From assembly GCA_964557475.1 (NCBI GenBank), contig CAZLAG010000001.1, forward strand, positions 7,575 through 43,353: a stretch of DNA of 35,779 nt. The letters are read 5' to 3'. How positions within the stretch are numbered: position 1 is the first letter of the stretch; the number at the start of each line of letters is the position of its first letter. The position numbers and the translations under genes were made by a program. This DNA is from an uncultured Gammaproteobacteria bacterium. Lineage in GTDB: Bacteria; Patescibacteriota; Microgenomatia; UBA12405. Shown one piece after another: positions 3,950 to 32,597 of the stretch. The notes beneath the pieces are model-generated. The model was not told where the DNA came from, searched no databases, and worked only from the letters and a program-made list of their open reading frames with translations.

Positions 3950-3950
3950 T

Positions 3951-8177: not shown

Positions 8178-8178
8178 A

Positions 8179-8817
8179 ATGAAAAAACAAATTTTCCAAA
8201 TATTTAAAAGAACCATTGATATTGTTGGATCTTTAGTTCTTTTAATCATATTCTCTCCAATCATGTTGGTAACCATGGTACTGGTTAAAGCTAGCTCTCC
8301 AGGCCCTATTTTTTTTAAACAAAAAAGAGTTGGTAAAAATAGTCATCAATTTTGGATGTATAAATTTAGATCTATGTATACCGGTGATAATGATAAAAGA
8401 TTAAGAGAAAATTACCCAGAACTTTGGAAAAAATATAAAGAAAATGGTTGGAAATTAGAAATGTCTGAAGACCCTCGTATTACACCTATTGGTAAAAAAA
8501 TTAGATCATTAACCATTGATGAATTTCCTCAATTAATCAATGTCTTAAAAGGGGATATGAGTTTGATTGGCCCTAGAGCTTATCGAGAAGAAGAACTTCA
8601 AGAACAAGAAAAAAAATACCCTAAAACTAAAAAATATATTAATATTATTAGGTCAGCCAAACCTGGAATTACTGGTGTTTGGCAAACTTCCGGTAGGAAT
8701 GATATTTCTTTTGAACAAAGAGCCAAAATGGACGCCAATTATATTAAAAAACAGTCTTTTATAGAAGAAATAACTATCATCATAAAAACTCCGCTCTCTA
8801 TGTTTTCCAGGTGGTAA
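8179..8817 (+). CDS. Small monotopic phosphoglycosyl transferase (bacterial sugar transferase, PglC/WcaJ C-terminal-domain type)
   Basis: Motifs: KRTIDIVGSLVLLIIFSPIML, PGPIFFKQKRVGKN, YKFRSM, DPRITPIGKKIRSLTIDEFPQLINVLKGDMSLIGPRA. Confidence 0.9.
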   Translation: MKKQIFQIFKRTIDIVGSLVLLIIFSPIMLVTMVLVKASSPGPIFFKQKRVGKNSHQFWMYKFRSMYTGDNDKRLRENYPELWKKYKENGWKLEMSEDPRITPIGKKIRSLTIDEFPQLINVLKGDMSLIGPRAYREEELQEQEKKYPKTKKYINIIRSAKPGITGVWQTSGRNDISFEQRAKMDANYIKKQSFIEEITIIIKTPLSMFSRW

Positions 8818-8846
8818 TTTTTGAAAATTTTGTTTAAACTTATCTT

Positions 8847-11528: not shown

Positions 11529-12848
11529 ATGTCAGATAATCAAAATGATCTTGTAAGTAAAATTGTCAGTCTCTGTAAACGCAGAGGAATTATTTTTCAA
11601 AATTCTGAAATCTATGGCGGTGTTCAAGGATTTTACGATTATGGTCCAGTTGGTTCTCTGATGAAAAAAAATTGGAAAGATCTTTGGATTCACGACAATG
11701 TTACATCTCGACAAGATGTTGTTATGATTGATGGGTCTATTATCACTCATCCTCGAGTTTGGGAAGCTTCAGGTCATGTAAAGAATTTTGCCGATGTCAT
11801 GGTTGAATGTAAATCATGTCATAAACGTTTTCGACCAGATTTACTTGACGATCCTTCAAAGTGTCCAGAATGTGGCGGACAATTTACCGAAGGTCGTAAA
11901 TACAATATTTTGTTTGAAACTGAAATCGGAGTTATTGAAGGCGAAAAACTTCATGCCTATTTGCGAGGAGAAGCTTGTCAAACTATATATCTAGATTTTA
12001 AAAACATTGTCGATTCATGTCGAGTTAAAATACCATTTGGTATTGCTCAAATTGGAAAAGCTTTTAGAAACGAAATCACTCCAAAAAACTTCCTTTATCG
12101 CACTCGAGAATTTGAACAATGGGATATTCAATATTTTGTTCATCCAAATGAAATGGATAAATGGTTTGAATATTGGAAAGAAACTCGTATCAATTGGTAT
12201 AAATCACTTTTCAATAATGCTGAAAATCTTCGTTTTAGACAACACGCCCCTGATGAGTTAGCGTTTTATGCTAAAAAAGCTTTTGATATTGAATATAACG
12301 CTCCATGGGGATGGGCCGAAATGGAAGGTATTCATTGGCGTTCAGATTATGATTTAAGTCAACATTCCAAATTTAGTGGTCAAGATTTATTTTATATTGA
12401 TCCAGTCACACACGAAAAATATCTTCCATGGATAACTGAAACTTCTGGAGGAGTTGATCGTAGTTTCTTTTTTATGCTTCTTGATGCTTACCAGGAAGAA
12501 AAAACTGAAAGTGGTGATATTCGAACTGTTTTAAAAGTTAATCCAAAAGTTTCTGCCTATAAAATGGCTATTTTTCCACTTGCTGCCAATAAACCAGAAC
12601 TTATTGATAAAGCTGAAAATCTTTTTAAACAGCTAAATCAAAAATATTCTATTGATTGGGATGATAGTAGTAATATTGGTAAAAAATATCGTCGTCAAGA
12701 CGAAATAGGAACTCCATGGTGTGCCGTTGTTGATTACCAAACTCTTGAAGATAATACTGTTTCAATTCGTGATCGCGATACTATGAAACAAATCCGTCTT
12801 CCAATTGATGAAATTGACACTTGGATAGAAAAGCAGTTAAATAAGTAA
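11529..12848 (+). CDS. glyQS: Glycyl-tRNA synthetase, dimeric (alpha2) class II type
   Basis: Motifs: KRRGIIFQNSEIYGGVQGFYDYGPVGSLMKKN, the Cys-rich insertion CKSCHKRFRPD...CPECGG, FRNEITPKNFLYRTREFEQ, and the C-terminal anticodon-binding region GKKYRRQDEIGTPW. Confidence 0.95.
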   Translation: MSDNQNDLVSKIVSLCKRRGIIFQNSEIYGGVQGFYDYGPVGSLMKKNWKDLWIHDNVTSRQDVVMIDGSIITHPRVWEASGHVKNFADVMVECKSCHKRFRPDLLDDPSKCPECGGQFTEGRKYNILFETEIGVIEGEKLHAYLRGEACQTIYLDFKNIVDSCRVKIPFGIAQIGKAFRNEITPKNFLYRTREFEQWDIQYFVHPNEMDKWFEYWKETRINWYKSLFNNAENLRFRQHAPDELAFYAKKAFDIEYNAPWGWAEMEGIHWRSDYDLSQHSKFSGQDLFYIDPVTHEKYLPWITETSGGVDRSFFFMLLDAYQEEKTESGDIRTVLKVNPKVSAYKMAIFPLAANKPELIDKAENLFKQLNQKYSIDWDDSSNIGKKYRRQDEIGTPWCAVVDYQTLEDNTVSIRDRDTMKQIRLPIDEIDTWIEKQLNK

Positions 12849-13573
12849 TGACTATGAAAAATAAAACTCCAATCTATTTTATTATTGGTGCATTAGTACT
12901 AGTTATTATCACTATTATTATAGTAATTACTGGTAAAGGTAAAAAAACTACTACTAGTACTGAAAATATCCCAAGTAATGACAAATCAAATAGTGAGCTA
13001 GTTTTGACAGACGATCAAAAACCTTATATTAGCTTGATCCCTCAAAGTGATGGTCATAGATTGGATTTAAAAATTTCCAATATTCCCAGTTCTATTAGCG
13101 AAATAGAATATGATTTAATTTACACCGCCAAAGATGAAAATATAGAAATTGAAAAAGGTGTTGGTGGCACTGCAAAAATTGAAGGTACTTCAATTGAAAG
13201 AGAATTACTTTTAGGTACTGAAAGTTGTACTAGTGGTTGTAAGTATAAATACGATGAAGGGATCACTGGTGGTACTCTAAGCCTTAGTTTTATTACCGCC
13301 AATGGTCAGTCTGCTTCTTATGAAGCTCCGTTTGTTTTTTCAACATCTGCTAATATAAAAACAACTGGTGGTTTGAAACTTGAAACGGAAGATTTTTCCA
13401 TTAAAACTACTGTTTCTTCAAAAAGTGATTACTTTATCTTAATCAAAAATTTCAAACCAGTTTACTCAGTTTTTTCTAATGGTAACGGTAGTGGTAAAGT
13501 ATCTTCAATCACCCCATCAACTGTTACAAAAAAAGACATGTCTGTCATAACTGGAGATTACTCAATCAATTAA
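12848..13573 (+). CDS. Hypothetical membrane-anchored (N-terminal TM) extracytoplasmic protein
   Basis: N-terminal helix IYFIIGALVLVIITIIIVIT followed by a Ser/Thr-rich segment. I recognise no family motif. Coupled by TAATG overlaps to glyQS upstream and rsmH downstream. It occupies the position usually held by mraZ. Confidence 0.55.
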   Translation: MTMKNKTPIYFIIGALVLVIITIIIVITGKGKKTTTSTENIPSNDKSNSELVLTDDQKPYISLIPQSDGHRLDLKISNIPSSISEIEYDLIYTAKDENIEIEKGVGGTAKIEGTSIERELLLGTESCTSGCKYKYDEGITGGTLSLSFITANGQSASYEAPFVFSTSANIKTTGGLKLETEDFSIKTTVSSKSDYFILIKNFKPVYSVFSNGNGSGKVSSITPSTVTKKDMSVITGDYSIN

Positions 13574-14708: not shown

Positions 14709-16324
14709 ATAATTCTCGATATAAAACAATTTCATTAGCTCTAAGTCTATGTTTTGTTTTTATCATTTGTCGTTTTTTTTATATTCAAGTAATTAAAGGA
14801 TCTGAGTTAAGAGAAAAAGCATTAACTCAAACATATAAGCTTGAAAAAACTATTCCTAGTCGTGGAAAAATATTCTCTTCAGATAAATTTCCTTTAGCTA
14901 TTAATATTACTAATTATAAACTTTCAATATACAAACCAAATTTAGACCAAGATTTAACTCAAATATTTAACATCGTAAACCAAATTCACCCTCAATTTAA
15001 CCAAGAAAACAATAAATTAATTGATTTATTTAAAAATAATTCCAATCAAAAATGGTTGACTTTTAACAGTCTTTTTAATGAAGATGAAAAAAAACAACTC
15101 AATTTACCAGGTCTTATTTTTGAAAAATATGAAAGAAGATATTATCCAGAACAATCAATGGCTCAATCAATTTTAGGATTAGTAGCCAAAAATGATCAAG
15201 GATATGATATTGGTTATGGTGGACTTGAAGGTTATTATCAAAAACAATTAAAAGGAAAAACGGGATTTACATGGTCACCGCAAGACGCCACCGGCAAAGC
15301 TATTCTTACTAAAAAATCATGGAGTTCTATTGCTATAGATGGACAAGATTTGTACACCACTTTAAATCGTAGTGTTCAATTTCAAGTCGAATCAGAATTA
15401 AAAAATGGAGTTGAAAAATATGATGCTGATTCCGGATCTATTACAGTTTTAGACAGTAAAACTGGTGGAATTTTAGCTATGAGCACATTTACAGCAACGA
15501 ATTCTGCCACTCCAAGCGCTACCAAAATAAATTCCATATCAGACCTTTTTGAACCAGGGTCAATTTTTAAACCATTAATTGTCACTATGGCACTTGACAG
15601 TAAATCAATTTCTTCAGAATACATTTGTGATAAATGTGATAAACCCCTAACCATAGGTCAATATACAATCACAAATCACGATAACGCTACTCATCCTAAT
15701 TCAACATTAAGAGACATTATAAAAAACTCTGACAACATCGGTATGAGCCATATTATTGCCAAACTTGGATTAGAAAAATTCTTAGATTATTTTCAAAAAC
15801 TTGGTTTAAATCAAAAAACTGGTATAGATTTACAAGGAGAATCTAGGCCAAGTGTTAAAAAAGATTGGCCAGACATAGATTTGGCTACAGCTTCTTTTGG
15901 TCAGGGAATTGTTGTCACTCAAACTGGTATGATTCAAGCATTTAATACCATTGCTAATGATGGAATGCTAGTTAAGCCACATTTATTAATAAGTAAAAAT
16001 AATAATCCCAAAAAAGTTTTTGATTCAGAAGCTATTAAAGAAATTAAATCAATTTTAAAATATTCCGTTGAAAATGGTGTTGTTTCAACAATGAAACCAA
16101 AAAATTTAGAAGTTTGTGCCAAAAGTGGTACTGCCCAAATTGCTATTAAAGGCGGTTATACTGATTCTTCTACAATTGCTTCATATATTGGATTTTCACC
16201 ATGTGAGAATCCTAAATTTACCATGATTGTAACTATTAACAATCCTAAAAGTTCACCCTGGGGTTCTAGTACTGCTGCTCCTATTTGGTTCGAGCTAGCT
16301 TCAAAAATTGATCATTTGCTATAA
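14705..16324 (+). CDS. ftsI: Class B penicillin-binding protein (FtsI/PBP2-type transpeptidase)
   Basis: N-terminal TM helix and FYIQVIKG. Active-site motifs SxxK (GSIFKP), SxN (KNSDNIG) and K(T/S)G (AKSGTA). Confidence 0.9.
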   Translation: MNNSRYKTISLALSLCFVFIICRFFYIQVIKGSELREKALTQTYKLEKTIPSRGKIFSSDKFPLAINITNYKLSIYKPNLDQDLTQIFNIVNQIHPQFNQENNKLIDLFKNNSNQKWLTFNSLFNEDEKKQLNLPGLIFEKYERRYYPEQSMAQSILGLVAKNDQGYDIGYGGLEGYYQKQLKGKTGFTWSPQDATGKAILTKKSWSSIAIDGQDLYTTLNRSVQFQVESELKNGVEKYDADSGSITVLDSKTGGILAMSTFTATNSATPSATKINSISDLFEPGSIFKPLIVTMALDSKSISSEYICDKCDKPLTIGQYTITNHDNATHPNSTLRDIIKNSDNIGMSHIIAKLGLEKFLDYFQKLGLNQKTGIDLQGESRPSVKKDWPDIDLATASFGQGIVVTQTGMIQAFNTIANDGMLVKPHLLISKNNNPKKVFDSEAIKEIKSILKYSVENGVVSTMKPKNLEVCAKSGTAQIAIKGGYTDSSTIASYIGFSPCENPKFTMIVTINNPKSSPWGSSTAAPIWFELASKIDHLL

Positions 16325-17666
16325 TAAAACAATAAAAATGTCATTAAAATCGATAAATTTTCAAAAAATCAAAAACATCTTTTGGCATTACCCCAAAAAT
16401 TATCTTGTTAGTCTTCGTTATAATTTTCCAGCTAAGAAATTAAAACTCATTGGTATAACCGGAACTGATGGTAAAACTACCACCTGTATTTTAGTTTATG
16501 AGACATTAAAAAAAGCTGGTATAAAAGCTGGAGTTATCACCACCATAGGAGCTAAATATGGTGATAATCAAGAAATTAGTACTGGCCTACACATGACTAG
16601 TCCAGACCCAGAATTATTTCAACAAATACTTAGTCAAATGCTAGCTGCAGGAGTAACTCATGTTGTTTGCGAAGTGACTGCTCACGGATTAGACCAATAT
16701 CGATTTTTAGGATGTCACTTTATAACTGCCGCTATTACCAATACTTCACACGAACATTTGGATTATTACCAAAACATGAACGAATATATTAAATCAAAAG
16801 CTAAAATTTTTGATCAATCAGATTTTGCCATTCTCAATAAAGATGATCTTTCATACAACATCATAAAACCATTAGTAAAATCTCCACTCAGTACTTATAG
16901 CATTAATTCAAAATCTAATTATCAAGCTAAAAATATTAAATTAACTGACAAAAAACTAACCTTCGAAGTTAATAATCTTTCAATAGTTACTGATAGTAGT
17001 TATTACTATCAGATCAATAATATTTTAGTTGCTCTAAATATAATTGACAGTTTAAAAGTAAATCAAAAGTTTTTGCTTGATACAATCAAAAACTTTCCAG
17101 AAACTAAAGGTCGTCGAGAAGAAGTGAATAATGATTTTAAGTTCAAAACTATTGTTGATTTTGCTCATACACCCAATGCTTTAGAAAAAACTCTTTCATC
17201 TCTAAAAAAAATTACTAAAGGCAAAATAATTGTTATTTTTGGTGCTACTGGTGGTAGAGATCAGAGTAAACGTCCGGAAATGGGTAAAGTAGTTTCACTT
17301 TTTTCTGATATTGCTGTAATTACTTCCGACGATACTCGCAATGAAGACATCAAACAAATTAATCAACAAATTATAAATGGTATTGATCATAATAGTTCTC
17401 ATTTTTTTGATATTCAAAATATAGAAAATAATAAACAGATTCAAGAAATACTTAAAATTGCAGATAAAAAATTTACTTATTTTAATATTCCCAATCGACA
17501 AGATGCTTTTAACCTAGCTGTAAAATTGGCCCAAACCGATGATGTTGTAATTGCTTGTGGAAAGGGTCATGAAGATACCATTCTTCATGGCAATACTGAA
17601 TATCCTTGGTCAGAAACTGAAGCATTTAGAACTGCCTTAAAACTAAAAAAATATGATCCAGTTTAA
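16308..17666 (+). CDS. murE: MurE-type Mur ligase (UDP-MurNAc-L-Ala-D-Glu:diamino acid ligase) with a shortened N-terminal domain
   Basis: P-loop GITGTDGKTTT. Other MurE-like motifs: CEVTAHGLDQYR, TNTSHEHLDYY, VDFAHTPNALEKTL, FGATGGRDQSKRP and CGKGHED. The start may instead be the ATG at 16338 (MSLKS...), which avoids the overlap with ftsI. Confidence 0.85.
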   Translation: MIICYNKTIKMSLKSINFQKIKNIFWHYPKNYLVSLRYNFPAKKLKLIGITGTDGKTTTCILVYETLKKAGIKAGVITTIGAKYGDNQEISTGLHMTSPDPELFQQILSQMLAAGVTHVVCEVTAHGLDQYRFLGCHFITAAITNTSHEHLDYYQNMNEYIKSKAKIFDQSDFAILNKDDLSYNIIKPLVKSPLSTYSINSKSNYQAKNIKLTDKKLTFEVNNLSIVTDSSYYYQINNILVALNIIDSLKVNQKFLLDTIKNFPETKGRREEVNNDFKFKTIVDFAHTPNALEKTLSSLKKITKGKIIVIFGATGGRDQSKRPEMGKVVSLFSDIAVITSDDTRNEDIKQINQQIINGIDHNSSHFFDIQNIENNKQIQEILKIADKKFTYFNIPNRQDAFNLAVKLAQTDDVVIACGKGHEDTILHGNTEYPWSETEAFRTALKLKKYDPV

Positions 17667-18249
17667 TTTAAATAAAAATCAATCAATAGAATCAAACTAT
17701 CAACAAGGTTTTCTTCCACAAAGAAATCAAAAAGATCTTTGGTATCAAGATAGTAGTAGTAGATCTAATTTGTTTCAAATTAATCTCAGTTCAGAAAATA
17801 GAAGAATTTTAAGAAAAACAGATAATTTTTCATTTATTAAAACCAATTTAAAAAATTTTGAATTTAATCTTAATATTCAGAAAGAAATTTTTTCCTGGAT
17901 AAAACAATTAGGTTGGGAATTTCCTATAAGTTCGGTTAAAAAAATATTTACCAATCATATCTTTAATTTTGTCTACACTTGGTATGATGAAAACAATCAA
18001 ATAGTTGCTTATTCAATTTGTTATTTTTCAGAAACTATTAGTCATATTGCTTATGTCTTTTATAATCCCAAATATAACCATAGCAATCTTCCAATTAGAT
18101 TGGTTTTACAAACTATAATTGATAGTCAAAAAGAAAACCTTCAATTTTGTTATCTAGGTCGTTTTTCTTCAGAAACTGGATTTTATAAACGAAACATGCC
18201 CGGATTTGAATATTTTAAAGACAACCAATGGATTCCTTATGAGAAATAA
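17653..18249 (+). CDS. Mini ATE/Bpt-like (arginyl/leucyl-tRNA-protein transferase family, GNAT-like fold) putative aminoacyl-tRNA-dependent transferase
   Basis: The C-terminal half resembles the ATE_C/Bpt consensus: IVAYSICYFSETISHIAYVFYNPKYNHSNL...FCYLGRFSSETGFYKRNMPGFEYFKDNQW versus the remembered pattern SavYtFyDPd...SLG...YLGY...KM.YK..F.P.E....W. The N-terminus YQQGFLPQR...F.LSSENRRILRK resembles ATE_N but lacks its cysteines. Judged by eye only. Confidence 0.5.
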   Translation: MIQFNLNKNQSIESNYQQGFLPQRNQKDLWYQDSSSRSNLFQINLSSENRRILRKTDNFSFIKTNLKNFEFNLNIQKEIFSWIKQLGWEFPISSVKKIFTNHIFNFVYTWYDENNQIVAYSICYFSETISHIAYVFYNPKYNHSNLPIRLVLQTIIDSQKENLQFCYLGRFSSETGFYKRNMPGFEYFKDNQWIPYEK

Positions 18250-18288: not shown

Positions 18289-19662
18289 ATGCATATTCAT
18301 ATTGTCGGAATCGCCGGAACCATGACAGCACCTTTGGCTGCTAATCTTAAAAAAAGAGGTGTTTATGTCACCGGATCAGATCAAGAAAAAATATATCCAC
18401 CAGTCAGTACTATTTTGAAAAAGTCGGATATATTGATCAATTCGATAGATATCAATACAAATATAGATCTAGCCATTATCGGTTCTTCGTATCTTTCTTT
18501 TGAAAAAACAAAAAAAGAGTTTTATCAAATAAAAAAATTAAAAATTCCATATATCTCGGCCACTAACTATTTAGCTCAAAACTTAATTAAAGAAAATTCT
18601 ATTCTAATTGCTGGAAGCTTTGGTAAAACTACAATTACTAGTTTATTGACTTGGATTTTTATAAAAGCCAAAAAAGATCCAAGTTATATGTTTGGTGGAT
18701 ATCCAAAAAATAAGTTAGAACCTTTAAATTTTTCATCTTCGGATCTATCAATAGTTGAAGCTGATGAATCAATAAATGGACTTGATCGAAAAGCTAAATT
18801 TTTATATTATCCAGTTAAACATTTAATTTTAACTAGCGCCGATTGGGAACATAAAGATTCTTATCCTAACCAAATTAAAAATTTTCAAGCCTTTAAAAAA
18901 TTAATCAATAATATTCCCAGTAATGGAACACTTTTGATTAATTCAAATGGTTATCAAACAAAAAAACTAAGTTTATATTCCAAAGCTAAAGTAATTACTT
19001 ATAACTCTTTTACTTCGGATTATTATATAGAAAATATTGAAATTCATAATCATATTACAAACTTAGTAATTCATACTCCAAAAGGACCTTTAGCAATTCA
19101 AACTACTTTAATTGGTCAGTTTAATTTTGAAAATATTCTAGCAGCAGTTAGTTTGGCTGACCATTTAGGAATTAACTTCCGTATTATTCAAAAGGCTGTT
19201 TTTAGTTTTAAAGGTGTCAAAAGACGTCTTGAATTGATCGATAATTTACACAATATTTTATTTTTTGAAGATTTCGCTCAATCTACCAATCGTATTAAAT
19301 CAACCATAGATGCTTTAAAAACTCATTTTCCAGATAGAAAAATTAAAGTCTTTTTTCAACCTCATGCTTCTTTTACACTTTTTAAAACTAATTTGATTGG
19401 ATTAAAAAAATCATTTAGTAAAGCTGACGAAATTGTATTAGGTCCAATTAGGTTTAATCCAAAAATTGATAAAAAATCTAGAACTACCGCCAAGGATTTT
19501 AAAAATGAAATTGGCTCAAAATTAATTTATATCCCTATCGAAAAAGAAATTAAAGCTTACTATATACATCAATTATCATCAAATGATATCCTTGTTTATA
19601 TGAGTTCTGGTGGCCTATCTGGAAACAAAATTATTAAATCTATTATTAGGCATTTTCGTTAA
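18289..19662 (+). CDS. Mur ligase of the Mpl/MurC family, with Mpl-like signatures
   Basis: MHIHIVGIAGTMTAPLAANLKKRGVYVTGSDQEKIYPPVSTIL parallels E. coli Mpl MRIHILGICGTFMGGLA...VTGSD.NVYPPMSTLL. EADESINGLDRKAKFLYYPVKHLILTS parallels Mpl EADEYDCAFFDKRSKFVHYCPRTLILNN. P-loop AGSFGKTT. Comparison sequences are from memory. Confidence 0.8.
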   Translation: MHIHIVGIAGTMTAPLAANLKKRGVYVTGSDQEKIYPPVSTILKKSDILINSIDINTNIDLAIIGSSYLSFEKTKKEFYQIKKLKIPYISATNYLAQNLIKENSILIAGSFGKTTITSLLTWIFIKAKKDPSYMFGGYPKNKLEPLNFSSSDLSIVEADESINGLDRKAKFLYYPVKHLILTSADWEHKDSYPNQIKNFQAFKKLINNIPSNGTLLINSNGYQTKKLSLYSKAKVITYNSFTSDYYIENIEIHNHITNLVIHTPKGPLAIQTTLIGQFNFENILAAVSLADHLGINFRIIQKAVFSFKGVKRRLELIDNLHNILFFEDFAQSTNRIKSTIDALKTHFPDRKIKVFFQPHASFTLFKTNLIGLKKSFSKADEIVLGPIRFNPKIDKKSRTTAKDFKNEIGSKLIYIPIEKEIKAYYIHQLSSNDILVYMSSGGLSGNKIIKSIIRHFR

Positions 19663-19668
19663 ACATTT

Positions 19669-20997
19669 ATGTCAAGATATATTATTTCTGGCGGCAAAAA
19701 ACTTCAAGGTGAAATTTCAATTCGTGGTGCAAAAAATGCTAGTTATAAACAAATTATTGCTTCTTTACTTTCAGACCAAACAACTCAGCTTACCAATATT
19801 CCTAATATATCAGACATAAAAATAACCGAAAGTATAGCGAAATCTTTAGGATCTGAAATAAATTATTGTGGAGAACATTGTGTTCAAGTTACTACCCCAA
19901 AAATTAAAAATAATACTGTCCCTCAAGGTACTGGTACAAAATCACGCAGTTCATTTATGTTTTCTGCACCACTATTGGCCAGAAATGGTCAGGCTATTGT
20001 GCCCACACCAGGAGGAGATCGTTTGGGTAGTCGACCTCTAGATCGTTTGATCGATTGCTTTTCCAAAATGAATATAAAAACAGAGGAAACGGAAACTAAT
20101 TTAATTTTTAAAACTGAAAAAATTCTTCCAACTCATTATATTTTTAACAAGCCTTCACATACAGTAACTGAAACAGTTATTATGACTGCAGTTTTAACTA
20201 ATGGTGAAACTGTATTAGAAAATTGTGGTCAAGAACCTGAAATTGATGATCTTATTGTTCTTTTAAATAAAATGGGGGCCAAAATTCAAAGAGATTTAGT
20301 AGATCCAGGTAAAATTATAATTCAAGGAGTATCGTCCTTAAAAGGAACCGAACATCAAGTAATCTGTGATCGTAATGAAATTGTTACCTTCGTTTGTGCT
20401 GCTTTAGCTACCAAAGGTAGTGTCAATATTCTCCGAGCTGATCCTAAAACTGTCAAAACATTTTTAGAAACCATTGAAACTATGGGGGCCAAAGTTCAAA
20501 CAGGACAGGAAGAAATTAGTGTCTATTGGGATCAACCTTTAAAGGCTATCAATATAGAGACAGGACCAGAACCTGGCTTTATGACCGACTGGCAAGCCTT
20601 ATTTTCCATATTACTAACCCAAGCTGTCGGCTGTAGTTCAATCATCGAAAAAGTATACCCAAGTCGTTTTCAACATATTGCCAATTTGCAAAAAATGGGA
20701 GCAAAAGTTCAACTATTCAATCCAATGATTGATAATCCAGATACTTATTATCAATTTAATCCTGAAAGTGATAGGCCAGAATTCTTTCATGGTGTGAAAA
20801 TTTACGGACCAACTAAACTCAATCCAACTAATTTTGTTATTGATGATCTTCGAGCTGGAGCTTCTACTACTATTGCCGCATTAGTGGCCCAAGGTACATC
20901 AACTATAGACGGTGTTGAATTTATTGAACGAGGTTACGAAAAATTAGCTGAACGACTTTCTTCATTAGGTGCTAACATTGAATATATAAAAATATAA
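19669..20997 (+). CDS. murA: UDP-N-acetylglucosamine 1-carboxyvinyltransferase MurA (Asp in place of the catalytic-loop Cys)
   Basis: N-terminus YIISGGKKLQGEISIRGAKNAS. The loop PTPGGDRLGSRPLDRL aligns to E. coli LPGGCAIGARPVDLH. C-terminal motif DLRAGASTTIAAL. Confidence 0.92.
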   Translation: MSRYIISGGKKLQGEISIRGAKNASYKQIIASLLSDQTTQLTNIPNISDIKITESIAKSLGSEINYCGEHCVQVTTPKIKNNTVPQGTGTKSRSSFMFSAPLLARNGQAIVPTPGGDRLGSRPLDRLIDCFSKMNIKTEETETNLIFKTEKILPTHYIFNKPSHTVTETVIMTAVLTNGETVLENCGQEPEIDDLIVLLNKMGAKIQRDLVDPGKIIIQGVSSLKGTEHQVICDRNEIVTFVCAALATKGSVNILRADPKTVKTFLETIETMGAKVQTGQEEISVYWDQPLKAINIETGPEPGFMTDWQALFSILLTQAVGCSSIIEKVYPSRFQHIANLQKMGAKVQLFNPMIDNPDTYYQFNPESDRPEFFHGVKIYGPTKLNPTNFVIDDLRAGASTTIAALVAQGTSTIDGVEFIERGYEKLAERLSSLGANIEYIKI

Positions 20998-20999
20998 TT

Positions 21000-22034
21000 A
21001 TGATCCATCTTTATCTAGGTTTATTGTTGTTTTCTTTCTTTATCACCAGTACCTTAGTTGTTCCATTTATTAATCTTCTTTATAAACTCAAATTTCAACG
21101 TCAAAAGCAACAAACTACAGATTTTCAAAATAATCGAACCCCAATATTCGATAAATTTCATAATTTAAAACAGGGAACTCCGGTCGGCGGTGGACTTCTT
21201 ATCATTATTTCTGTCTGTATTATGTTTATTATTTTATTTCCTTTACTCAAATTTTCAAAAATATTTATCTCATCAAACTTTCAAATAAACTACGAATTAG
21301 AAATAATTTTCTTTACTTTCATAAGTTTTGGAATTCTTGGTCTTTACGATGATATTTATAAATTCTTTGGTTTTAAAAAAACTGGTTTTTTTGGTTTAAG
21401 ATTGATTCACAAACTCATACTTCAAATTGTCTTATCTTTAATTATTTCTTTTTTAATTTATTTCAGACTTAAGATTGATTTTTTCTATATACCATTTTTT
21501 GGACCATTACACTTAGGTTTCTTTTTTATTCCAATATCTACATTAATTATTACCGCCTTTACTAATTTTTTTAATATTACCGACGGACTCGATGGATTAT
21601 CATGTGGGTTATTAATGATTGCTCTTTTTGCTTTTTGGTTTTTATCTAATAGCTCGATGGATACTCCTACATCATTATTTTTATCTCTTTGGTTAGGTTC
21701 TTTAATTGCTTTTTTATATTTCAATATCTATCCAGCTCGTATTTGGCTAGGGGATGTTGGTGCACTTTCATTTGGTGCTACATTTGCCGTTATTGCTATT
21801 CTTTTAGGTAAAATAGTTCCTTTAATTATTATTGGTTCTCCATTTATAGTTGAAGGTATGAGTAGCGCTATTCAAATATTTAGTAAAAAATATTTGGGTA
21901 AAAAAATATTTCCTGCTGCTCCTTTACACTTGACTCTTCAAAAAATTGGTTGGGAAGAACCTAAAATTGTCGCTAGAGCCTGGTTGGCTGGTATTATATT
22001 ATCTATTTTTGGACTATGGTTGGGACTAAACTAA
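21000..22034 (+). CDS. mraY: Phospho-N-acetylmuramoyl-pentapeptide transferase MraY
   Basis: Polytopic membrane protein. Motifs: KQGTPVGGG, YDDIYKF, NITDGLDGL and GDVGALSFG. Confidence 0.92.
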   Translation: MIHLYLGLLLFSFFITSTLVVPFINLLYKLKFQRQKQQTTDFQNNRTPIFDKFHNLKQGTPVGGGLLIIISVCIMFIILFPLLKFSKIFISSNFQINYELEIIFFTFISFGILGLYDDIYKFFGFKKTGFFGLRLIHKLILQIVLSLIISFLIYFRLKIDFFYIPFFGPLHLGFFFIPISTLIITAFTNFFNITDGLDGLSCGLLMIALFAFWFLSNSSMDTPTSLFLSLWLGSLIAFLYFNIYPARIWLGDVGALSFGATFAVIAILLGKIVPLIIIGSPFIVEGMSSAIQIFSKKYLGKKIFPAAPLHLTLQKIGWEEPKIVARAWLAGIILSIFGLWLGLN

Positions 22035-22585
22035 TTAAAGAGTTAAAATTAGAAATTAATAAATACGTTGGAATTCCTTATTGGAAAAATGTTTTAAAAG
22101 ACGGCAAAATAATCAAAGAAGGGTTTATGGGCGGAAAGGGGAATGCAAAAGATATTGCTTTAAAAACAGTTGAGTTAGCTAATAACCAAAATTTAAAATT
22201 ACTCAATCTTTCAGAAAAAGAAATTTACAATTTTCAAAAGAAAAATAAAATCGGCATTGATTGTTCTGGATTAGTTTGTCAGTTATTGATCTTTTACGGA
22301 AATTTAATTGGTAAAGACATTAATTTAAATCCACGAAAAACTTCTGCCGATATGCTTACTTCAAAACCATTATCCAAAAAAATTAATAACAACGATATTC
22401 AAACTGGCGATTTAATTCGTCAAAAAAATGGTCATCATGTTTTGTTTGTTGTTGAAAAAAACGATAGTGTTATCACTTATGTTGATAGCTCTAGAGAAAA
22501 TAGAGGTGTTCACTACGGTCAAGCAAAATTAACTGACTCTAATTTTGAAAATCAAGGAATATTTAGATTATTTCTCTTCGACTAA
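22016..22585 (+). CDS. NlpC/P60-family cysteine peptidase-like protein with no signal peptide
   Basis: Motifs: YVGIPY, catalytic Cys in GIDCSGLVCQLL, and His in GDLIRQKNGHHVLFVV. The N-terminus MVGTKLIKELK is hydrophilic, with no signal or TM segment. Overlaps the mraY 3' end by 19 nt. Confidence 0.7.
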   Translation: MVGTKLIKELKLEINKYVGIPYWKNVLKDGKIIKEGFMGGKGNAKDIALKTVELANNQNLKLLNLSEKEIYNFQKKNKIGIDCSGLVCQLLIFYGNLIGKDINLNPRKTSADMLTSKPLSKKINNNDIQTGDLIRQKNGHHVLFVVEKNDSVITYVDSSRENRGVHYGQAKLTDSNFENQGIFRLFLFD

Positions 22586-22732
22586 TTCTCGATAATTTAA
22601 AGGATTAATGGAGGTAATTTCAACCTCAGTTCCACATTCGTTACATTCCAAAATATCACCAACTTCTTCATTACCATTAATAATAATTTCTGCCCCACAA
22701 TCAGGACATACAACTTTCTTTGTTCCTGTCAT
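22568..22732 (-). CDS. 54-aa Cys4 zinc-ribbon protein, LysW-like (amino-group carrier protein fold) but without the EDWGE tail
   Basis: Hand translation of the minus strand gives MTGTKKVVCPDCGAEIIINGNEEVGDILECNECGTEVEITSINPLNYRELVEEK*. It is below the ORF-track size cut-off. It fills the only large gap (190 nt) in the cluster. The pattern CPxCGAE-x12-C-xx-CG-x-E-x-E...PL matches Thermus LysW as I remember it: MVGTCPECGAELRLENPELGELVVCEDCGAELEVVGLDPLRLEPAPEEAEDWGE. Confidence 0.65.
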   Translation of the reverse strand: MTGTKKVVCPDCGAEIIINGNEEVGDILECNECGTEVEITSINPLNYRELVEEK

Positions 22733-22775
22733 ATTTAAAATAAAAAATATATAATTGAGTTAACTAGATCATTAT

Positions 22776-23597
22776 ATGACAAACACACCTTTAGTTAAAA
22801 TAGACAATTTTTATTTAAAAAGGGAAGATCAAAATCCCACTGGATCAGCCAAAGATAGAGCCATTCCATTTCAAATTATTAATCTTAAACAACATGGTTT
22901 TACTAAAGCTGTTATTTCTAGCACTGGTAACGCTGCTATTTCAGCAGCTCATTTTTGCCAACAAAACCAAATTGAATTAACTATATTTTTATCTTCAAAA
23001 GTAAATCAAAAAAAATTATCTCTCTTAAAAAAATTCTCTTCAGAAATTATTTTAACTCCACAGCCAATAAGTGAAGCTTTTAAATATTCTAAAAACAATC
23101 AAACTTATTTACTTCGTCAGTCTACAGATCCATCAGCCCTAATTGGATATCAACAAATTTCTATTGAAATACTAAATGACTTACCTCAAATTACTAGTAT
23201 TTTCATTCCCGTAGGTAGCGGTACCACTCTTTTAGGTATTTCTCAAAAACTTCCTCCAACAGTAAAAATATTTGCTATTCAATCAGCTGCTAATTGTCGA
23301 ATTTCCAAATCATTTGATAAAAATTTTATTCAAGAATCACGTTTAATTACTGACGCATTATCAGCCAAATTTTTTCCCAAAAAAAATGATATTATTTCAG
23401 CCATTAAAAAATCAAACGGATCTGCTTTCACAATTCAAAACAAAGATATTTTATTAGCCAATGAATTTCTTGAATCCAAAAATATCACTACTTCACTCGA
23501 AGGAGCATTAGCCTTAGCAGGCTATCAAAAAGCCATCAATAATAAAATTGAAATTGGACAATTCCCCGTTATTCTTTTGACAGGTGCTAAACGATGA
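22776..23597 (+). CDS. Compact fold-type II PLP-dependent enzyme (threonine synthase-like / Trp-synthase beta superfamily)
   Basis: FYLKREDQNPTGSAKDRA carries the PLP-lysine motif; the Lys codon is at 22851-22853. Other motifs: SSTGNAAISAA, the Gly-rich loop PVGSGTTLLGI and TSLEGALALAG. At 273 aa it is shorter than canonical ThrC. Confidence 0.7.
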   Translation: MTNTPLVKIDNFYLKREDQNPTGSAKDRAIPFQIINLKQHGFTKAVISSTGNAAISAAHFCQQNQIELTIFLSSKVNQKKLSLLKKFSSEIILTPQPISEAFKYSKNNQTYLLRQSTDPSALIGYQQISIEILNDLPQITSIFIPVGSGTTLLGISQKLPPTVKIFAIQSAANCRISKSFDKNFIQESRLITDALSAKFFPKKNDIISAIKKSNGSAFTIQNKDILLANEFLESKNITTSLEGALALAGYQKAINNKIEIGQFPVILLTGAKR

Positions 23598-24724
23598 ATC
23601 TTTTAAACATTCTTCAAGAAAGTAATTATGATTTTTTCTTCATCGGTGTAGATGATTTTTTAAGTATTAACGTCCCAGAATTAAAAAATTTTTATACTCT
23701 AAACCCAAAAAATTTAGATATTAAAATTGATATTAAAAATTCCGGTGTCTTTTTATCAAATCCAAAAGTTATTGAATATATTAAAAAAAAATCTATTCAA
23801 ACTAATCATCAAGTTGTAATTATTCCTTTTAAGCCATCAGGAAAAATAGAACATATCTGCCAAAAAGAAAATTGGATTTATGCTGCTAATCCAGCCAAAC
23901 TCAATCGATTTTTAGAAGATAAAATAAATTTTTCCAATCTTTGTCAAAAATTTAATTTTCCCACTATACCATCTGTAATCGATGATTTTAATCAACAAAA
24001 TTTTCAAAAATATCAACAAATTTTAAATAATAATTTAGTCATTCAAACTCGTTTTGGTTGGGCTGGAAAAAGTACTTTTCATTCGTCAAGTTGGGAAGAA
24101 ATAGAAAATAAAATTCCGATTGACACTCCAGTAAAATTTGCTCCTTTACTATCTGGTTATTCACTTATCAATAATTGTTGTCTTACTTCAAAAGGACTCA
24201 TTCAAAGCCCTCCTGGTCTTCAATATACCGGCTTGTCTCAGTTTACATCAAACCCTTTTACCACAGTCGGTCGGCAATGGCCATCCTATGCACCGGTAAA
24301 TGTTGTTGAAAAAATTAGATCGTTAACTCAAAAATTTTCAGATATTTTAAAAGTAATAAATTATAAAGGTTTTTTTGGTTTAGATTTTTTTATTAGTAAA
24401 GATGAAGTATTTATTTTAGAATGTAACCCAAGGCTTACAGCATCTTTTGAACTCTATCATCAAATTGAAACTAAAAATAATCTTAACTCATTATTTTTAT
24501 TTCATTTATTTTCATTTTTACCACTAAAAATTGAATTTGATATTTCTCAAGAAATTAAAAGATTTTATAATCCAGCTATAATTGGTTCTGAAATCACTAA
24601 AAAAGACAAATTTAACAATACTTGTGGCCGTTACCGTGATTTTATTCCATTCTCACTACAAAGTGACCCTATAGATATTGCCCCATCAATCATCAAATCT
24701 GCCAATGAAACCGACCATATCTAA
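23594..24724 (+). CDS. ATP-grasp superfamily ligase, subfamily unresolved
   Basis: The C-terminal catalytic region YKGFFGLDFFISKDEVFILECNPRLTASF (ECNPR at 24419-24433) resembles CarB-like and ATP-grasp_3/4 motifs (E-x-N-P-R). LVIQTRFGWAGKST looks like a central-domain loop. The ATGA overlap with the PLP enzyme gene suggests translational coupling. Confidence 0.7.
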   Translation: MNLLNILQESNYDFFFIGVDDFLSINVPELKNFYTLNPKNLDIKIDIKNSGVFLSNPKVIEYIKKKSIQTNHQVVIIPFKPSGKIEHICQKENWIYAANPAKLNRFLEDKINFSNLCQKFNFPTIPSVIDDFNQQNFQKYQQILNNNLVIQTRFGWAGKSTFHSSSWEEIENKIPIDTPVKFAPLLSGYSLINNCCLTSKGLIQSPPGLQYTGLSQFTSNPFTTVGRQWPSYAPVNVVEKIRSLTQKFSDILKVINYKGFFGLDFFISKDEVFILECNPRLTASFELYHQIETKNNLNSLFLFHLFSFLPLKIEFDISQEIKRFYNPAIIGSEITKKDKFNNTCGRYRDFIPFSLQSDPIDIAPSIIKSANETDHI

Positions 24725-29712: not shown

Positions 29713-29743
29713 GCCGCGATTCTGCTTTGCAGAATACCGTGGC
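29713..29743 (+). other. GC-rich stem-loop in the ftsZ-ileS spacer
   Basis: GCCGCG-ATTCTGC-TTT-GCAGAAT-AC-CGTGGC forms 13 pairs, including one G-U, with a 2-nt bulge. It stands out locally against the AT-rich background. Confidence 0.45.
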
Positions 29744-29750
29744 ATTTCTA

Positions 29751-29775
29751 AATCCTTCATTTGAAGGATTTTTTT
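29751..29775 (+). terminator. Rho-independent terminator-like hairpin
   Basis: AATCCTTC-ATTT-GAAGGATT (8-bp stem, 29751-29770) followed by TTTTT (29771-29775). It ends 15 nt before the ileS ATG. Confidence 0.6.
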
Positions 29776-29789
29776 GTAAAATACACTAT

Positions 29790-32597
29790 ATGCCAAAATT
29801 TAAATCAATAGATCAAAACGTTAATTTTCCAGCTCTTGAAGAGAATATTATAAAATTTTGGAAAGATAAAAAAATATTTGAAAAATCAGTTGAGTCTCGA
29901 CCTAAAGAAAATGCTTACAGTTTTTATGATGGTCCTCCTTTTATTACTGGTATGCCTCACCATGGACATTTACTTTCCAGTATTGCTAAAGACGTTATTC
30001 CTCGTTTTTGGACCATGAAAGGCAAACGAGTTCGTCGTGTTTGGGGTTGGGATTGTCATGGACTTCCAGCCGAAAATAAAGTTGAAGAATTATTGGGTTT
30101 AAAAAACAAAAAAGATATTGAGACCATTGGTATCAAAAAATATATCGATACTTGTTATGATTATGTTCAAAATGTTTCTCAAGAATGGCCTTGGTATATT
30201 GATCATGTTGGTCGTTGGGTTGATTTAGATCATGCCTACAAAACCATGGATTTAAATTACATGGAAAGTGTTATGTGGGTTTTTTCTGAAATCTACAAAA
30301 AGGGATTAATTTACAAAGGTAATCGTATTTCTTTATACTGTCCTCGTTGTTCAACACCATTATCAAACTTTGAAATTGCCATGGATAATTCCTACAAAGA
30401 TGTCGAAGATCCAGCCATTTCTATTAAATTTAAATTAAAAGATCGCGATGCTTATGTCTTAGCTTGGACAACTACTCCTTGGACTCTTCCGGCAAATCTT
30501 GCTTTAGCAGTAAATAAAGATGAAATTTATTCAGAAATTAAAATTAATAATCAAAACTTGATTTTAGCTAAAGCCAGAATTGAAGCTGTTGTTGATAATC
30601 AAGCCTATGAAATTATTAAAGAATTTAAAGGTCAAGAATTAATTGGACTTTCCTACGAACCACTTTATAGTTTTTTTGAAGTCAGCCAAAATGACTACAA
30701 AATTTACCATGCGGATTTTGTTTCTATGACAGATGGTACTGGTGTAGTTCATATTGCACCAGCTTTTGGTGAAGATGATTCTAATTTTGGTAAACAGAAT
30801 AAATTATCTTTAATAAATCATGTTGATGATGAAGGTAAAATAATTGATCAAGTTACTCCTTTTGCCAATTTGTTTGTTAAAAAAGCCGATCCACTTGTTA
30901 TTGAAGATCTTAAAGATAGAAATTTACTTTTTAAACAAGATTTAATTACTCATAGTTATCCTTTTTGTTATCGTTGCGGTACTCCTTTAATTTACAAATC
31001 TCAAACTGCTTGGTATCTCAATGTTCAATCTGTTAAAGACGGTATGAAATCCACCAATCAAAATATTAATTGGGTTCCAGACCATATCAAAGACGGTCGT
31101 TTTGGACAAGGAATTGAAACTGCTCCTGACTGGTGTTTATCAAGATCTCGTTTTTGGGCCTCTCCAATTCCTGTTTGGGAATGTGAATGTGGTGAAAAAT
31201 TTGTTCCATCAAGTATTGCCGAACTAGAAGCAAAATCTGGTAAAAAAATCACTAATCTTCACAAACCAGATATTGATGAGGTTACTATCCATTGTGATAA
31301 ATGTGGTAAGGAAGTCCATCGTGTTCCAGAAGTTTTAGATTGTTGGTTTGAATCAGGCGCCATGCCTTATGCTCAACTCCATTATCCTTTTGAAAACAAA
31401 GAATTTTTTGAAAAAAGTTTTCCAGCTGATTATATAGTCGAATATATTGGACAAACTCGTGGTTGGTTTTACACCCTCCATGTTTTATCTAATACTTTAT
31501 TCCAATCTGAAAGTTTTAAAAACTGTGTTGTCACCGGTACCATGATGGGAACCGATGGTCGAAAAATGAGTAAACTTTTCAAAAATTATCCTGATCCAAA
31601 AATGGTTCTTCAAAAATACGGTGGAGATGCTATGCGTCTTTATCTTATGAGTAGTGTCATTATGGTCGGAGAAAATATTAACCTTGATGAAAAAGAATTT
31701 GATAATCAAGTTAAAAATGTTTTACTTCCTCTATGGAATTCTTTTAAATATTTTATTACTTATGCCAATCTTTTCGATTTTTCTCCAAAAGATGATCAAC
31801 TAGAATCTAGTAATGTTCTTGATCAATGGATACAAAATCAAACTAATAATTTTATTATTAATATTGAAAAAGAATTAAACGAATACAATCTTCCAAATGC
31901 CACTCGTTTAATTGAGCCATATATTAATGACCTTTCTCGTTGGTATATTCGTCAATCACGTGATCGATTTGCCACTGGTGACCACCAAGCTCTTCAAACT
32001 CTTTGGCAAGTTTTAGTAAAATTTTGTTTAACTACAGCGCCAATTATTCCATTTATTACTGAAAATATTTGGCAAAATTTAGTTGTCGATATTAATCCTA
32101 GTATATCAGAATCAATTCATTTGGAAAATTTTCCAATAGCTTCACCCTTTGATGAAAAAATTGCTTCTGATATGACTTTAGTTCAACAAATTTGTGAACA
32201 AGGAAATATGATTCGAAAAACCCAACAAATTAGTACTCGTCAACCATTATCAAAACTAACAATTTCATCAAATCAAAAAATAGATTTATCAGAAAAACTT
32301 ATCGAAGTTATAAAAAATGAAATTAATGTAAAAAATATTGAAATAAATAAATCAACTGATAGTCTAAAGGTTGTTCTTGATACCAACATATCTCCCGAAC
32401 TTAAGGCAGAAGGTGATGCTCGAGATCTAATTCGTTCCATTCAAAGTCTTCGTAAAGAAGCCAATTTAAATCTTAAAGATAAGATAAAGATATTTGCTCC
32501 AAATTGGCCATCCCAATTTGAAAACGAAATTCTTTCAAAAACATTAGCCCAAAATATTATCAAATCAGATTTGTTAAAAATAGAGAAAATCGACTAA
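29790..32597 (+). CDS. ileS: Isoleucyl-tRNA synthetase, type 2 (eukaryote-like)
   Basis: The start is set at MPKFKSIDQ (29790). The track's 29727 start would read through the hairpin and terminator. Motifs: FYDGPPFITGMPHHGHLL (HIGH region), WDCHGLP, CPRCSTPL, CYRCGTPL, and KMSKLFKNYPDP (KMSKS region, type 2 pattern). Confidence 0.95.
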   Translation: MPKFKSIDQNVNFPALEENIIKFWKDKKIFEKSVESRPKENAYSFYDGPPFITGMPHHGHLLSSIAKDVIPRFWTMKGKRVRRVWGWDCHGLPAENKVEELLGLKNKKDIETIGIKKYIDTCYDYVQNVSQEWPWYIDHVGRWVDLDHAYKTMDLNYMESVMWVFSEIYKKGLIYKGNRISLYCPRCSTPLSNFEIAMDNSYKDVEDPAISIKFKLKDRDAYVLAWTTTPWTLPANLALAVNKDEIYSEIKINNQNLILAKARIEAVVDNQAYEIIKEFKGQELIGLSYEPLYSFFEVSQNDYKIYHADFVSMTDGTGVVHIAPAFGEDDSNFGKQNKLSLINHVDDEGKIIDQVTPFANLFVKKADPLVIEDLKDRNLLFKQDLITHSYPFCYRCGTPLIYKSQTAWYLNVQSVKDGMKSTNQNINWVPDHIKDGRFGQGIETAPDWCLSRSRFWASPIPVWECECGEKFVPSSIAELEAKSGKKITNLHKPDIDEVTIHCDKCGKEVHRVPEVLDCWFESGAMPYAQLHYPFENKEFFEKSFPADYIVEYIGQTRGWFYTLHVLSNTLFQSESFKNCVVTGTMMGTDGRKMSKLFKNYPDPKMVLQKYGGDAMRLYLMSSVIMVGENINLDEKEFDNQVKNVLLPLWNSFKYFITYANLFDFSPKDDQLESSNVLDQWIQNQTNNFIINIEKELNEYNLPNATRLIEPYINDLSRWYIRQSRDRFATGDHQALQTLWQVLVKFCLTTAPIIPFITENIWQNLVVDINPSISESIHLENFPIASPFDEKIASDMTLVQQICEQGNMIRKTQQISTRQPLSKLTISSNQKIDLSEKLIEVIKNEINVKNIEINKSTDSLKVVLDTNISPELKAEGDARDLIRSIQSLRKEANLNLKDKIKIFAPNWPSQFENEILSKTLAQNIIKSDLLKIEKID

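Follow-up and report, generated by a model that had tools for sequence, protein, structure and literature searches.

Why should a small protein resembling the arginyl- and leucyl-tRNA-protein transferases be encoded among the genes for peptidoglycan precursor synthesis? The question is raised by a 35,779-nucleotide stretch of contig CAZLAG010000001.1 (positions 7,575 to 43,353; assembly GCA_964557475.1), which we refer to as the window, from a bacterium placed in the Microgenomatia of the Patescibacteriota. Here an open reading frame (ORF) of 198 residues, X (17653..18249, + strand), lies between murE and a gene for a ligase of the MurC/Mpl family. A preliminary description of this locus reasoned that an enzyme of the N-degron pathway has no obvious place in a division and cell wall (dcw) operon, and proposed a Fem-analogous, tRNA-dependent transferase acting on a peptidoglycan precursor. 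We agree with the first point, in that the context of X is not that of an N-degron enzyme, and with the second in part, as discussed below. The strongest regularity in our data is that X is coupled specifically to a ligase of the Mpl type, judged by its sequence to be peptide-attaching, which stands in for canonical murC. Our conclusion is that X is probably a transferase dedicated to peptidoglycan, with the fold of the aminoacyl-tRNA transferases, and coupled to this ligase.

Fold, family and distribution of X

The X gene begins with an ATG inside the end of murE, the two genes overlapping by 14 nt (17653..17666, + strand), and the Mur ligase gene is the next one, all as previously described. 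The overlap suggests that murE and X are translationally coupled. The motifs from which a relationship to the ATE/Bpt family had been proposed (YQQGF, LSSENRRILRK, SHIAYVFYNPKY, FCYLGRF and FYKRNMPGFEYF) are all present in X, and fall on invariant or near-invariant columns in an alignment of 29 homologues, the invariant columns including LPQRN, SENRRI, SHIAYVFY, CYLGRFS and YKRNMPGF. Pfam ATE_C (PF04377) is the sole family to exceed its gathering score for X, and does so marginally (27.5 bits against 25, E 5e-6, residues 95-171); 77 of 86 diverse relatives match it, with a best E-value of 3e-10. The NCBIfam arginyltransferase and Bpt models, of which X covers roughly the C-terminal three quarters in the Bpt alignment, return 22.8-25.8 bits, well below their cutoffs of 170-267. 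Pfam detects no ATE_N domain in X or in any of the 86 relatives, and the alignments contain no conserved cysteine in the N-terminal region, which bears out the earlier remark that X is shorter than members of the family and lacks their N-terminal cysteines.

We modelled X with AlphaFold2 on the family alignment (pLDDT 90.5, pTM 0.88) and searched the PDB with the model using Foldseek. The top 31 matches are all structures of ATE1, from human, yeast and K. lactis (E 1.5e-8 to 4e-6, TMq 0.60-0.71), and are followed mainly by MprF/aaPGS, Sba18/Sbb17, FemX and L/F-transferase, with few ordinary acetyltransferases. Searching the PDB by sequence, a narrow profile of X gave no match, and a broad profile reached ATE1 at E ~0.08 only. 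The likeness to ATE/Bpt is therefore weak by sequence and clear by predicted structure. On the strength of the model we regard X as a minimal ATE_C-type (ATE/Bpt-like) protein with an aminoacyl-tRNA-transferase fold, and its predicted structure supports membership of the superfamily of aminoacyl-tRNA transferases that comprises ATE/Bpt, Fem and L/F-transferase.

Within this superfamily X is not readily equated with any of the known enzymes. It shares with ATE1 and Bpt the best structural match, the ATE_C domain and a C-terminal motif, Y-L-G ... Y-K ... F-x-P/G-x-E, but differs from them in lacking ATE_N and the conserved cysteines, in its length (198 aa, against ~240 for Bpt and >500 for ATE1), in scoring about ten-fold under the NCBIfam cutoffs, and in its context, which is peptidoglycan synthesis rather than ClpS/ClpA; its predicted acceptor is correspondingly a cell-wall peptide, not a protein N-terminus. 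Aat (structural match E 7e-5) is of similar size and, like X, combines a small N-terminal subdomain with one GNAT domain, but E. coli Aat finds no sequence similarity in the 175 loci covered by this study, and its context is the N-degron pathway. Sba18 and Sbb17 are GNAT-type aminoacyl-tRNA transferases, and set a precedent for what our favoured model requires, namely that the amine of a small, non-protein molecule accepts the transfer. They differ from X in belonging to secondary-metabolite pathways, in not being ATE_C-type by sequence and in having no link to a Mur ligase. PacB and DhpH/DhpK are likewise peptide synthases that depend on aminoacyl-tRNA and have small molecules as substrates. 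The Fem enzymes (FemX, FemA/B, MurM) are predicted from the model to share a fold superfamily with X, would be expected like it to use aminoacyl-tRNA, and are also encoded among peptidoglycan genes. Fem enzymes have two GNAT-like units in about 330-420 aa, as against a single unit in ~200 aa for X, and X has no match to PF02388 (FemAB). Furthermore, X is obligately paired with or fused to an Mpl-type ligase, an arrangement that to our knowledge is not known for Fem enzymes. Acetyltransf_6, a family related to FemAB, is weakly matched by 35 of the 86 X relatives, and a genuine FemAB protein of the candidate phyla radiation (CPR), used as the query, matched no X-family ORF.

A fold of this kind need not imply a tRNA donor. 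X might instead use an acyl-CoA, or an acyl- or aminoacyl-phosphate supplied by the neighbouring ATP-dependent ligases, or might have no catalytic role and serve its partner as a specificity or scaffold subunit. GNAT folds use many donors, members of the wider X family show weak matches to ordinary GNAT families, and one distant X-like domain (P0182; L217, 8001-10430) is fused, in a protein of 809 aa encoded outside any cell-wall cluster, to an ATP-dependent module of PPDK_N and PEP-utilizer domains rather than to a Mur ligase. We nevertheless consider such roles unlikely, given that ATE1 takes all of the top 31 structural ranks and MprF, Sba18, FemX and L/F-transferase dominate those that follow. 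GNAT enzymes bind acetyl-CoA through the motif Q/R-x-x-G-x-G/A; at this place X, read directly, has NLPIRL. The X proteins of the Shapirobacteria type are basic (median pI 9.0), and seven polar residues (R37, E48, N49, R51, Y167, Y178 and K179) are invariant across homologues of 17-30% identity, which argues for catalysis.

Close homologues of X number 563, mostly from metagenome-assembled genomes of Shapirobacteria or Woesebacteria; they carry the automatic JGI name 'arginyl-tRNA--protein-N-Asp/Glu arginylyltransferase' or are hypothetical proteins at NCBI. The murE-X-mur ligase order, previously seen at this one locus, is invariant in 66 species-representative Shapirobacteria-type genomes, and the longer order rsmH-ftsL-ftsI-murE-X-ligase-(murA)-mraY-nlpC-PALP is retained in those 66 wherever the contig permits. 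The genes are tightly packed: the median distance in these loci is -8 nt from murE to X (within 100 nt in 62 of 63) and 2 nt from X to the ligase, and the distances between X and its neighbours overall are mostly ≤100 nt. With a median identity of 64% over 64 species, X is as well conserved as FtsI (60%) and MurE (62%).

When 1.84 billion representatives were searched exhaustively with a profile, only 217 clusters were found for X, and a scan with a second subgroup found relatives in at least 571 species-level CPR reference genomes. The best 80 loci of these make up what we call the Magasanikbacteria-type set, from a CPR lineage distinct from the Shapirobacteria type; we denote their X relative X'. 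At 31-41% identity the relatives are still found in murE-X'-ligase or mraY-X'-ligase arrangements. The order in the 80 loci is mraY-X'-ligase, mraY lying directly upstream of X' in 76 (median distance 7 nt), as part of a module that reads ATP-grasp-(NlpC-like)-mraY-X'-ligase-(NUDIX)-PALP with murB nearby. A pyridoxal phosphate (PLP) enzyme follows the ligase in 62 of the 80 and an ATP-grasp gene is present in 60, while an NlpC/P60-like gene accompanies X in the Shapirobacteria-type loci and X' in several of the Magasanikbacteria type. Coupling of X to the ligase is also seen in 12 loci labelled Paceibacteria or Taylorbacteria. The remote relatives P0227 (E 5e-9) and P0182 lie outside cell-wall clusters, and the association thus defines a subfamily rather than every protein matching ATE_C. 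These observations support the conclusion that, over very wide divergence, X keeps a fixed place in gene clusters for peptidoglycan precursors.

This distribution bears directly on whether X is a conventional Bpt-like N-degron enzyme that tags protein N-termini with a destabilising residue for ClpS/ClpAP degradation and is placed in the dcw cluster incidentally. The ATE_C match and the JGI name are what one would expect of such an enzyme, yet we think the explanation very improbable in view of scores far under every NCBIfam arginyltransferase cutoff, the lack of ATE_N, an invariant position in the peptidoglycan clusters of two distant CPR lineages, and the ligase fusions described below. Moreover, no homologue of ClpS, ClpA or Aat occurs in any of the 175 loci, the search being of the loci only and, for Aat, with the E. 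coli protein as query.

Two features of the loci themselves should be recorded here. A separate NUDIX gene often separates the Mpl-type ligase from the PLP enzyme in Magasanikbacteria-type loci (compare L076, 8254-8841), and in at least one genome the ATP-grasp protein is apparently fused to a NUDIX-like C-terminal region, read by eye (L146, 162-1175). Many records of the CPR-type loci L006-L159 are titled 'uncultured Gammaproteobacteria bacterium', and others Saccharibacteria, Udaeobacter or Arenimonas; such titles seem to be placeholders or wrong assignments, and taxonomy should not rely on them.

The ligase coupled to X

The partner of X, encoded directly downstream (18289..19662, + strand; 457 aa), is a UDP-MurNAc (UDP-N-acetylmuramic acid) ligase that scores 136.6 bits against E. 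coli Mpl (EcMpl) and 99.6 against E. coli MurC (EcMurC). The same preference is shown by every ligase adjacent to X or X' (134 of 134), whereas three canonical MurCs from X-less CPR genomes, used as controls, score 199-222 bits against EcMurC and 117-165 against EcMpl. In a neighbour-joining tree the X-associated ligases group with EcMpl and the control MurCs with EcMurC. The N-terminal Mpl signature GSDxx(Y/F)PPxS is found in 124 of the 134 X-associated ligases and is absent from the controls. The Mpl insertion loop is present in the X-associated ligases but conserved only at its D and KF, the full (S/T)AFFDKRSK motif not being conserved, and a loop of this type is also found in one control MurC. 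EcMurC is not the best match of any ORF in the X-bearing loci. As a separate observation, an X-less Patescibacteria genome (L214, 3221-5497) encodes a MurC~MurB fusion of 758 aa, the MurC part of which has the loop otherwise typical of Mpl.

The substrate pocket gives a similar picture. Five residues of the Haemophilus enzyme HiMurC contact L-Ala (PMC3060825); of these, four are kept in canonical CPR MurCs, one in the Shapirobacteria-type ligases and two in those of the Magasanikbacteria type. The best PDB match of the window ligase is 3HN7, which is PaMpl, the murein peptide ligase Mpl of Psychrobacter (PMC3060825). Mpl enzymes ligate preformed tri-, tetra- and pentapeptides, and L-Ala-D-Glu weakly (PMC3060825). 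Taken together, the scores, tree, signature motifs and diverged L-Ala pocket indicate that the partner ligase is of the Mpl type and not the MurC type, as far as sequence comparison can assign it. It differs from known Mpl in lying in the murC slot of the core dcw cluster rather than in a recycling locus, and in belonging to CPR bacteria rather than Gram-negative recyclers.

In-frame fusion of X to the ligase was found at least three times. P0122 (645 aa), identical in three assemblies, consists of X, a Pro/Ser-rich linker and the ligase, and is encoded in the order murE-(X~ligase)-murA; L125 (685 aa) and L135 (713 aa) are X'~ligase fusions from Magasanikbacteria-type genomes. Two further unusual forms of X were noted. 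In L134 (10001-11269), X' has a C-terminal extension of ~200 aa with several hydrophobic segments, which may be a membrane-anchored variant or a read-through, while a 440-aa 'X' in L130 proved to be an assembly-gap artefact.

Cell-wall clusters with and without X

The genes of the window cluster are all on the + strand. A cluster of polysaccharide and glycosyltransferase genes is followed by recO, a dimeric-type glycyl-tRNA synthetase (GlyRS), an unknown membrane protein, rsmH, ftsL and ftsI; then come murE, X, the MurC/Mpl-family ligase, murA, mraY and genes for an NlpC/P60-like protein, a PLP enzyme and an ATP-grasp protein; and these are followed by ftsW, murG, a 125-aa gene, ftsA, ftsZ, a class I synthetase, rodA and others. 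Canonical murC, murD, murF, ddl and fem genes are all absent from the 35.8-kb window.

For comparison we took three CPR clusters that lack X: L212 (Beckwithbacteria), L214 and L215. In L212 the order is murA ... murF-femAB ... mraY-murI-murD-ftsW-murG-ftsQ-ftsA-ftsZ; in L214 it is murE ... murC~murB-murA ... murF-femAB-mraY ... murD-ftsW-murG; and in L215, ftsI-murE ... murC ... murA ... murF ... femAB ... mraY-murD/murL-ftsW-murG, followed by others. Set against these, the window lacks murC, murF, femAB and murD, the last together with its racemase or epimerase, and has in their stead X, the Mpl-type ligase, and the NlpC/P60, PLP and ATP-grasp genes. The ligase occupies the murC slot, between murE and murA, and the NlpC-PALP-ATP-grasp run (22016-24724, between mraY and ftsW) occupies the slot that in related CPR holds murI-murD or murD/murL; the three genes may be a non-orthologous replacement of racemase plus ligase. 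The whole cassette of X, ligase, ATP-grasp, PLP and NlpC/P60 genes recurs in two distant CPR lineages with differing gene orders, as would be expected of a sub-pathway complete in itself. We also note that X-less L215 (12499-15299) encodes a MurD-type ligase beside an epimerase of the MurL type (Pfam MurL_N and MurL_epimerase_C). This pair represents the Xanthomonas-style route, which adds L-Glu first and epimerises it afterwards, here within the dcw cluster of a Patescibacteria genome.

The individual assignments within the window, all on the + strand, are of varying firmness. MurA (19669..20997) matches Pfam EPSP_synthase with 238 bits and is syntenic in 47 loci, and MraY (21000..22034) matches Glycos_transf_4. 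The NlpC/P60-like protein (22016..22585) falls just under the NLPC_P60 cutoff (22.7 bits against 23), has no obvious signal peptide, and found no informative relative in PDB sequence searches. The PLP enzyme (22776..23597) is of fold-type II and resembles ThrC/IlvA/CysK, with 148.8 bits for Pfam PALP and matches in the PDB; threonine-synthase models score far under their cutoffs. The ATP-grasp ligase (23594..24724) matches Pfam ATP-grasp_3 and is no recognisable Ddl; NCBIfam PRK06524 gives 99.7 bits, far under its cutoff, and PDB sequence searches gave no match.

MurE itself (16308..17666, 452 aa, TTG start) scores 340 bits on TIGR01085 against a cutoff of 257, but lacks most of the N-terminal UDP-binding domain 1: its alignment with solved MurE structures starts only at about residue 84-135 of the latter, and its P-loop is at residue 49, compared with 113 in E. 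coli. We considered whether loss of this domain might be a sign of non-nucleotide substrates, and rejected the idea. The MurE of X-less L215 is also short (438 aa, with the M and C domains only), short MurE being a general trait of CPR, and since a MurF without the domain is found in X-less CPR as well, the loss is no evidence for such substrates. MurE or MurF proteins without the usual domain 1 are encoded in X-bearing and X-less CPR alike (window, 16308-17666; L215, 344-1660; L212, 4650-6104; L154, 2447-3739); one Magasanikbacteria-type MurF has its P-loop at residue 27, and in the X-less Beckwithbacteria MurF a hydrophobic, membrane-like N-terminus of ~150 aa replaces the domain.

The remaining genes of the window lie further from X. 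The preliminary description had mentioned flanking glyQS and ileS genes as a weak coincidence. The GlyRS (11529..12848) is of the dimeric glyS type, not glyQS; the class I synthetase (29727..32597) does have an IleRS-like architecture. Their flanking position is kept only in the Shapirobacteria-type loci and absent from those of the Magasanikbacteria type, so that coincidence remains the right word for it. There are no tRNA genes in the window. Between GlyRS and rsmH (12848-13573) lies the gene for a conserved protein of 241 aa that is membrane-anchored at its N-terminus and matches no family; a 230-aa gene, also without a family match, holds the same position in the related locus L071 (2434-3126). 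Upstream of the dcw cluster, positions 452-10778 hold glycosyltransferase, Wzy-like polymerase, sugar-transferase and DUF4012 genes of surface polysaccharide synthesis.

A proposed role for X

How, then, might a transferase of this kind work with an Mpl-type ligase? In the reading that we favour, X belongs to the ATE/Bpt branch of the GNAT-fold enzymes and has been taken over for the synthesis of peptidoglycan precursors, with an Mpl-type UDP-MurNAc:peptide ligase as its obligate partner. X would accept the amino acid of an aminoacyl-tRNA (in the simplest case L-Ala, carried by Ala-tRNA) and attach it, at the free alpha-amino group, to a non-nucleotide acceptor whose first residue is acidic. 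This acceptor could be D-Glu or a gamma-D-Glu-diamino-acid peptide, coming from the co-transferred ATP-grasp and PLP enzymes, from MurE or from salvage. The product would be an L-Ala-D-Glu(-X) peptide, which the adjacent or fused ligase would join to UDP-MurNAc, so that X and the ligase would jointly do the job of canonical MurC and possibly that of later ligases. The tRNA dependence, donor, acceptor and order of steps are what we infer from fold and gene context. That the substrate of X is a free amino acid or peptide, subsequently attached to UDP-MurNAc by the ligase, seems to us a serious possibility, though short of probable. More tentative still is the full route, in which the stem peptide is not started on UDP-MurNAc by MurC (nor, possibly, by MurD), X places L-Ala from Ala-tRNA on D-Glu or a gamma-D-Glu-diamino-acid peptide, the Mpl-type ligase attaches the result, and the ATP-grasp, PLP and NlpC/P60 proteins help to make or salvage the peptide.

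The appeal of the free-peptide reading is that it would explain several things at once: the strict coupling of X to the ligase and their fusions, the switch from a MurC-type to an Mpl-type enzyme with loss of the L-Ala pocket, and the recurrence of the five-gene cassette in two distant lineages. ATE1 and Bpt act on the alpha-amines of N-terminal Asp or Glu, a preference that matches an acceptor beginning with D-Glu.

A number of findings weigh against this reading. The MurE that precedes X in the window is apparently ordinary. Five Magasanikbacteria-type loci contain MurF, arranged as ftsI-murF-mraY-X'-ligase, and a divergent MurD-type gene (110 bits on TIGR01087, against 212) lies beside the module in the 12 Paceibacteria- or Taylorbacteria-labelled loci. 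The retention of MurE, MurF and MurD-type genes suggests that the canonical later steps are at least partly kept, and the MurD-type gene in the 12 loci refutes, for some lineages, the idea that X and the Mpl-type ligase replace both MurC and MurD. It is important to note that only the loci were covered, and that a canonical MurC or MurD may be encoded elsewhere in the genome. The window ligase scores higher on the NCBIfam MurC model (242.3 bits, cutoff 335.1) than on the Mpl model TIGR01081 (177.9 bits, cutoff 388.7); both scores being under cutoff, this points to a distinct Mpl-like clade rather than an orthodox Mpl. We know of no such route in any bacterium. Finally, FemAB is encoded in the X-less clusters, next to murF and near mraY, and is found in none of the X-bearing loci, the only one of the 175 loci to have it being an X-less control.

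The last finding fits the Fem-analogous role originally suggested for X. Here X would move an amino acid from an aminoacyl-tRNA to the side-chain amine of residue 3, or to a branch residue, of UDP-MurNAc-tri/pentapeptide or lipid II, building a cross-bridge and replacing the FemAB of related CPR. Such a function has a precedent in the tRNA-dependent branching of peptidoglycan, FemX is among the structural matches of X, and the position of FemAB close to mraY recalls that of X', which is next to mraY in 76 of 80 loci. A search by name for MurD and FemX is suggestive only: Shapirobacteria and Magasanikbacteria are not among the matches listed (the top 120 of thousands, few of them named). MurE, MurF and a MurD-like gene are each kept in various X-bearing lineages, and the fusions too would be explained if the ligase attaches a tripeptide and X acts on its immediate product. 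What this role leaves unexplained is why X is always paired with or fused to an Mpl-type ligase, and why murC is absent from these clusters. X is, besides, ATE-type, with one GNAT-like unit in its 198 aa and no PF02388 match, and the ATE/Bpt-type enzymes are known for alpha-amine acceptors.

The residue-3 motif of MurE does not help to decide the matter. This motif is DNPR in enzymes that add diaminopimelate and DNPA in those that add Lys (PMC3829189). It is DDTR in the window, DDTR or DDPR in X-bearing CPR and EDPR in FemX-bearing CPR; with the arginine kept throughout, it fails to discriminate, and we rejected it as a test for branched peptidoglycan. The Fem-analogous proposal thus stands as regards the peptidoglycan clusters, the ligase fusions and the confinement of FemAB to X-less clusters, and falls short over the Mpl-type coupling. 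We regard it as possible but rather doubtful.

A literature search found no published description of the X-ligase module. Nearly all wall-bearing bacteria are considered to share the cytoplasmic Mur pathway, a major target of antibiotics, and in the lineages described here a conserved five-gene cassette stands where related genomes have murC, murF, femX and murD. Under either model, free-peptide or Fem-analogous, X would be the first enzyme of the ATE/Bpt type to be assigned to cell-wall synthesis rather than protein degradation, and the first tRNA-dependent transferase obligately paired with or fused to a Mur-family ligase. Should the favoured model be true, tRNA-dependent chemistry would supply a backbone residue of the stem peptide and not only its side branches, by an off-nucleotide route to an essential cell-wall precursor. 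The module bears, finally, on the question of how symbionts that are ultra-small and auxotrophic make or salvage their walls, a problem for which it provides concrete candidate enzymes.

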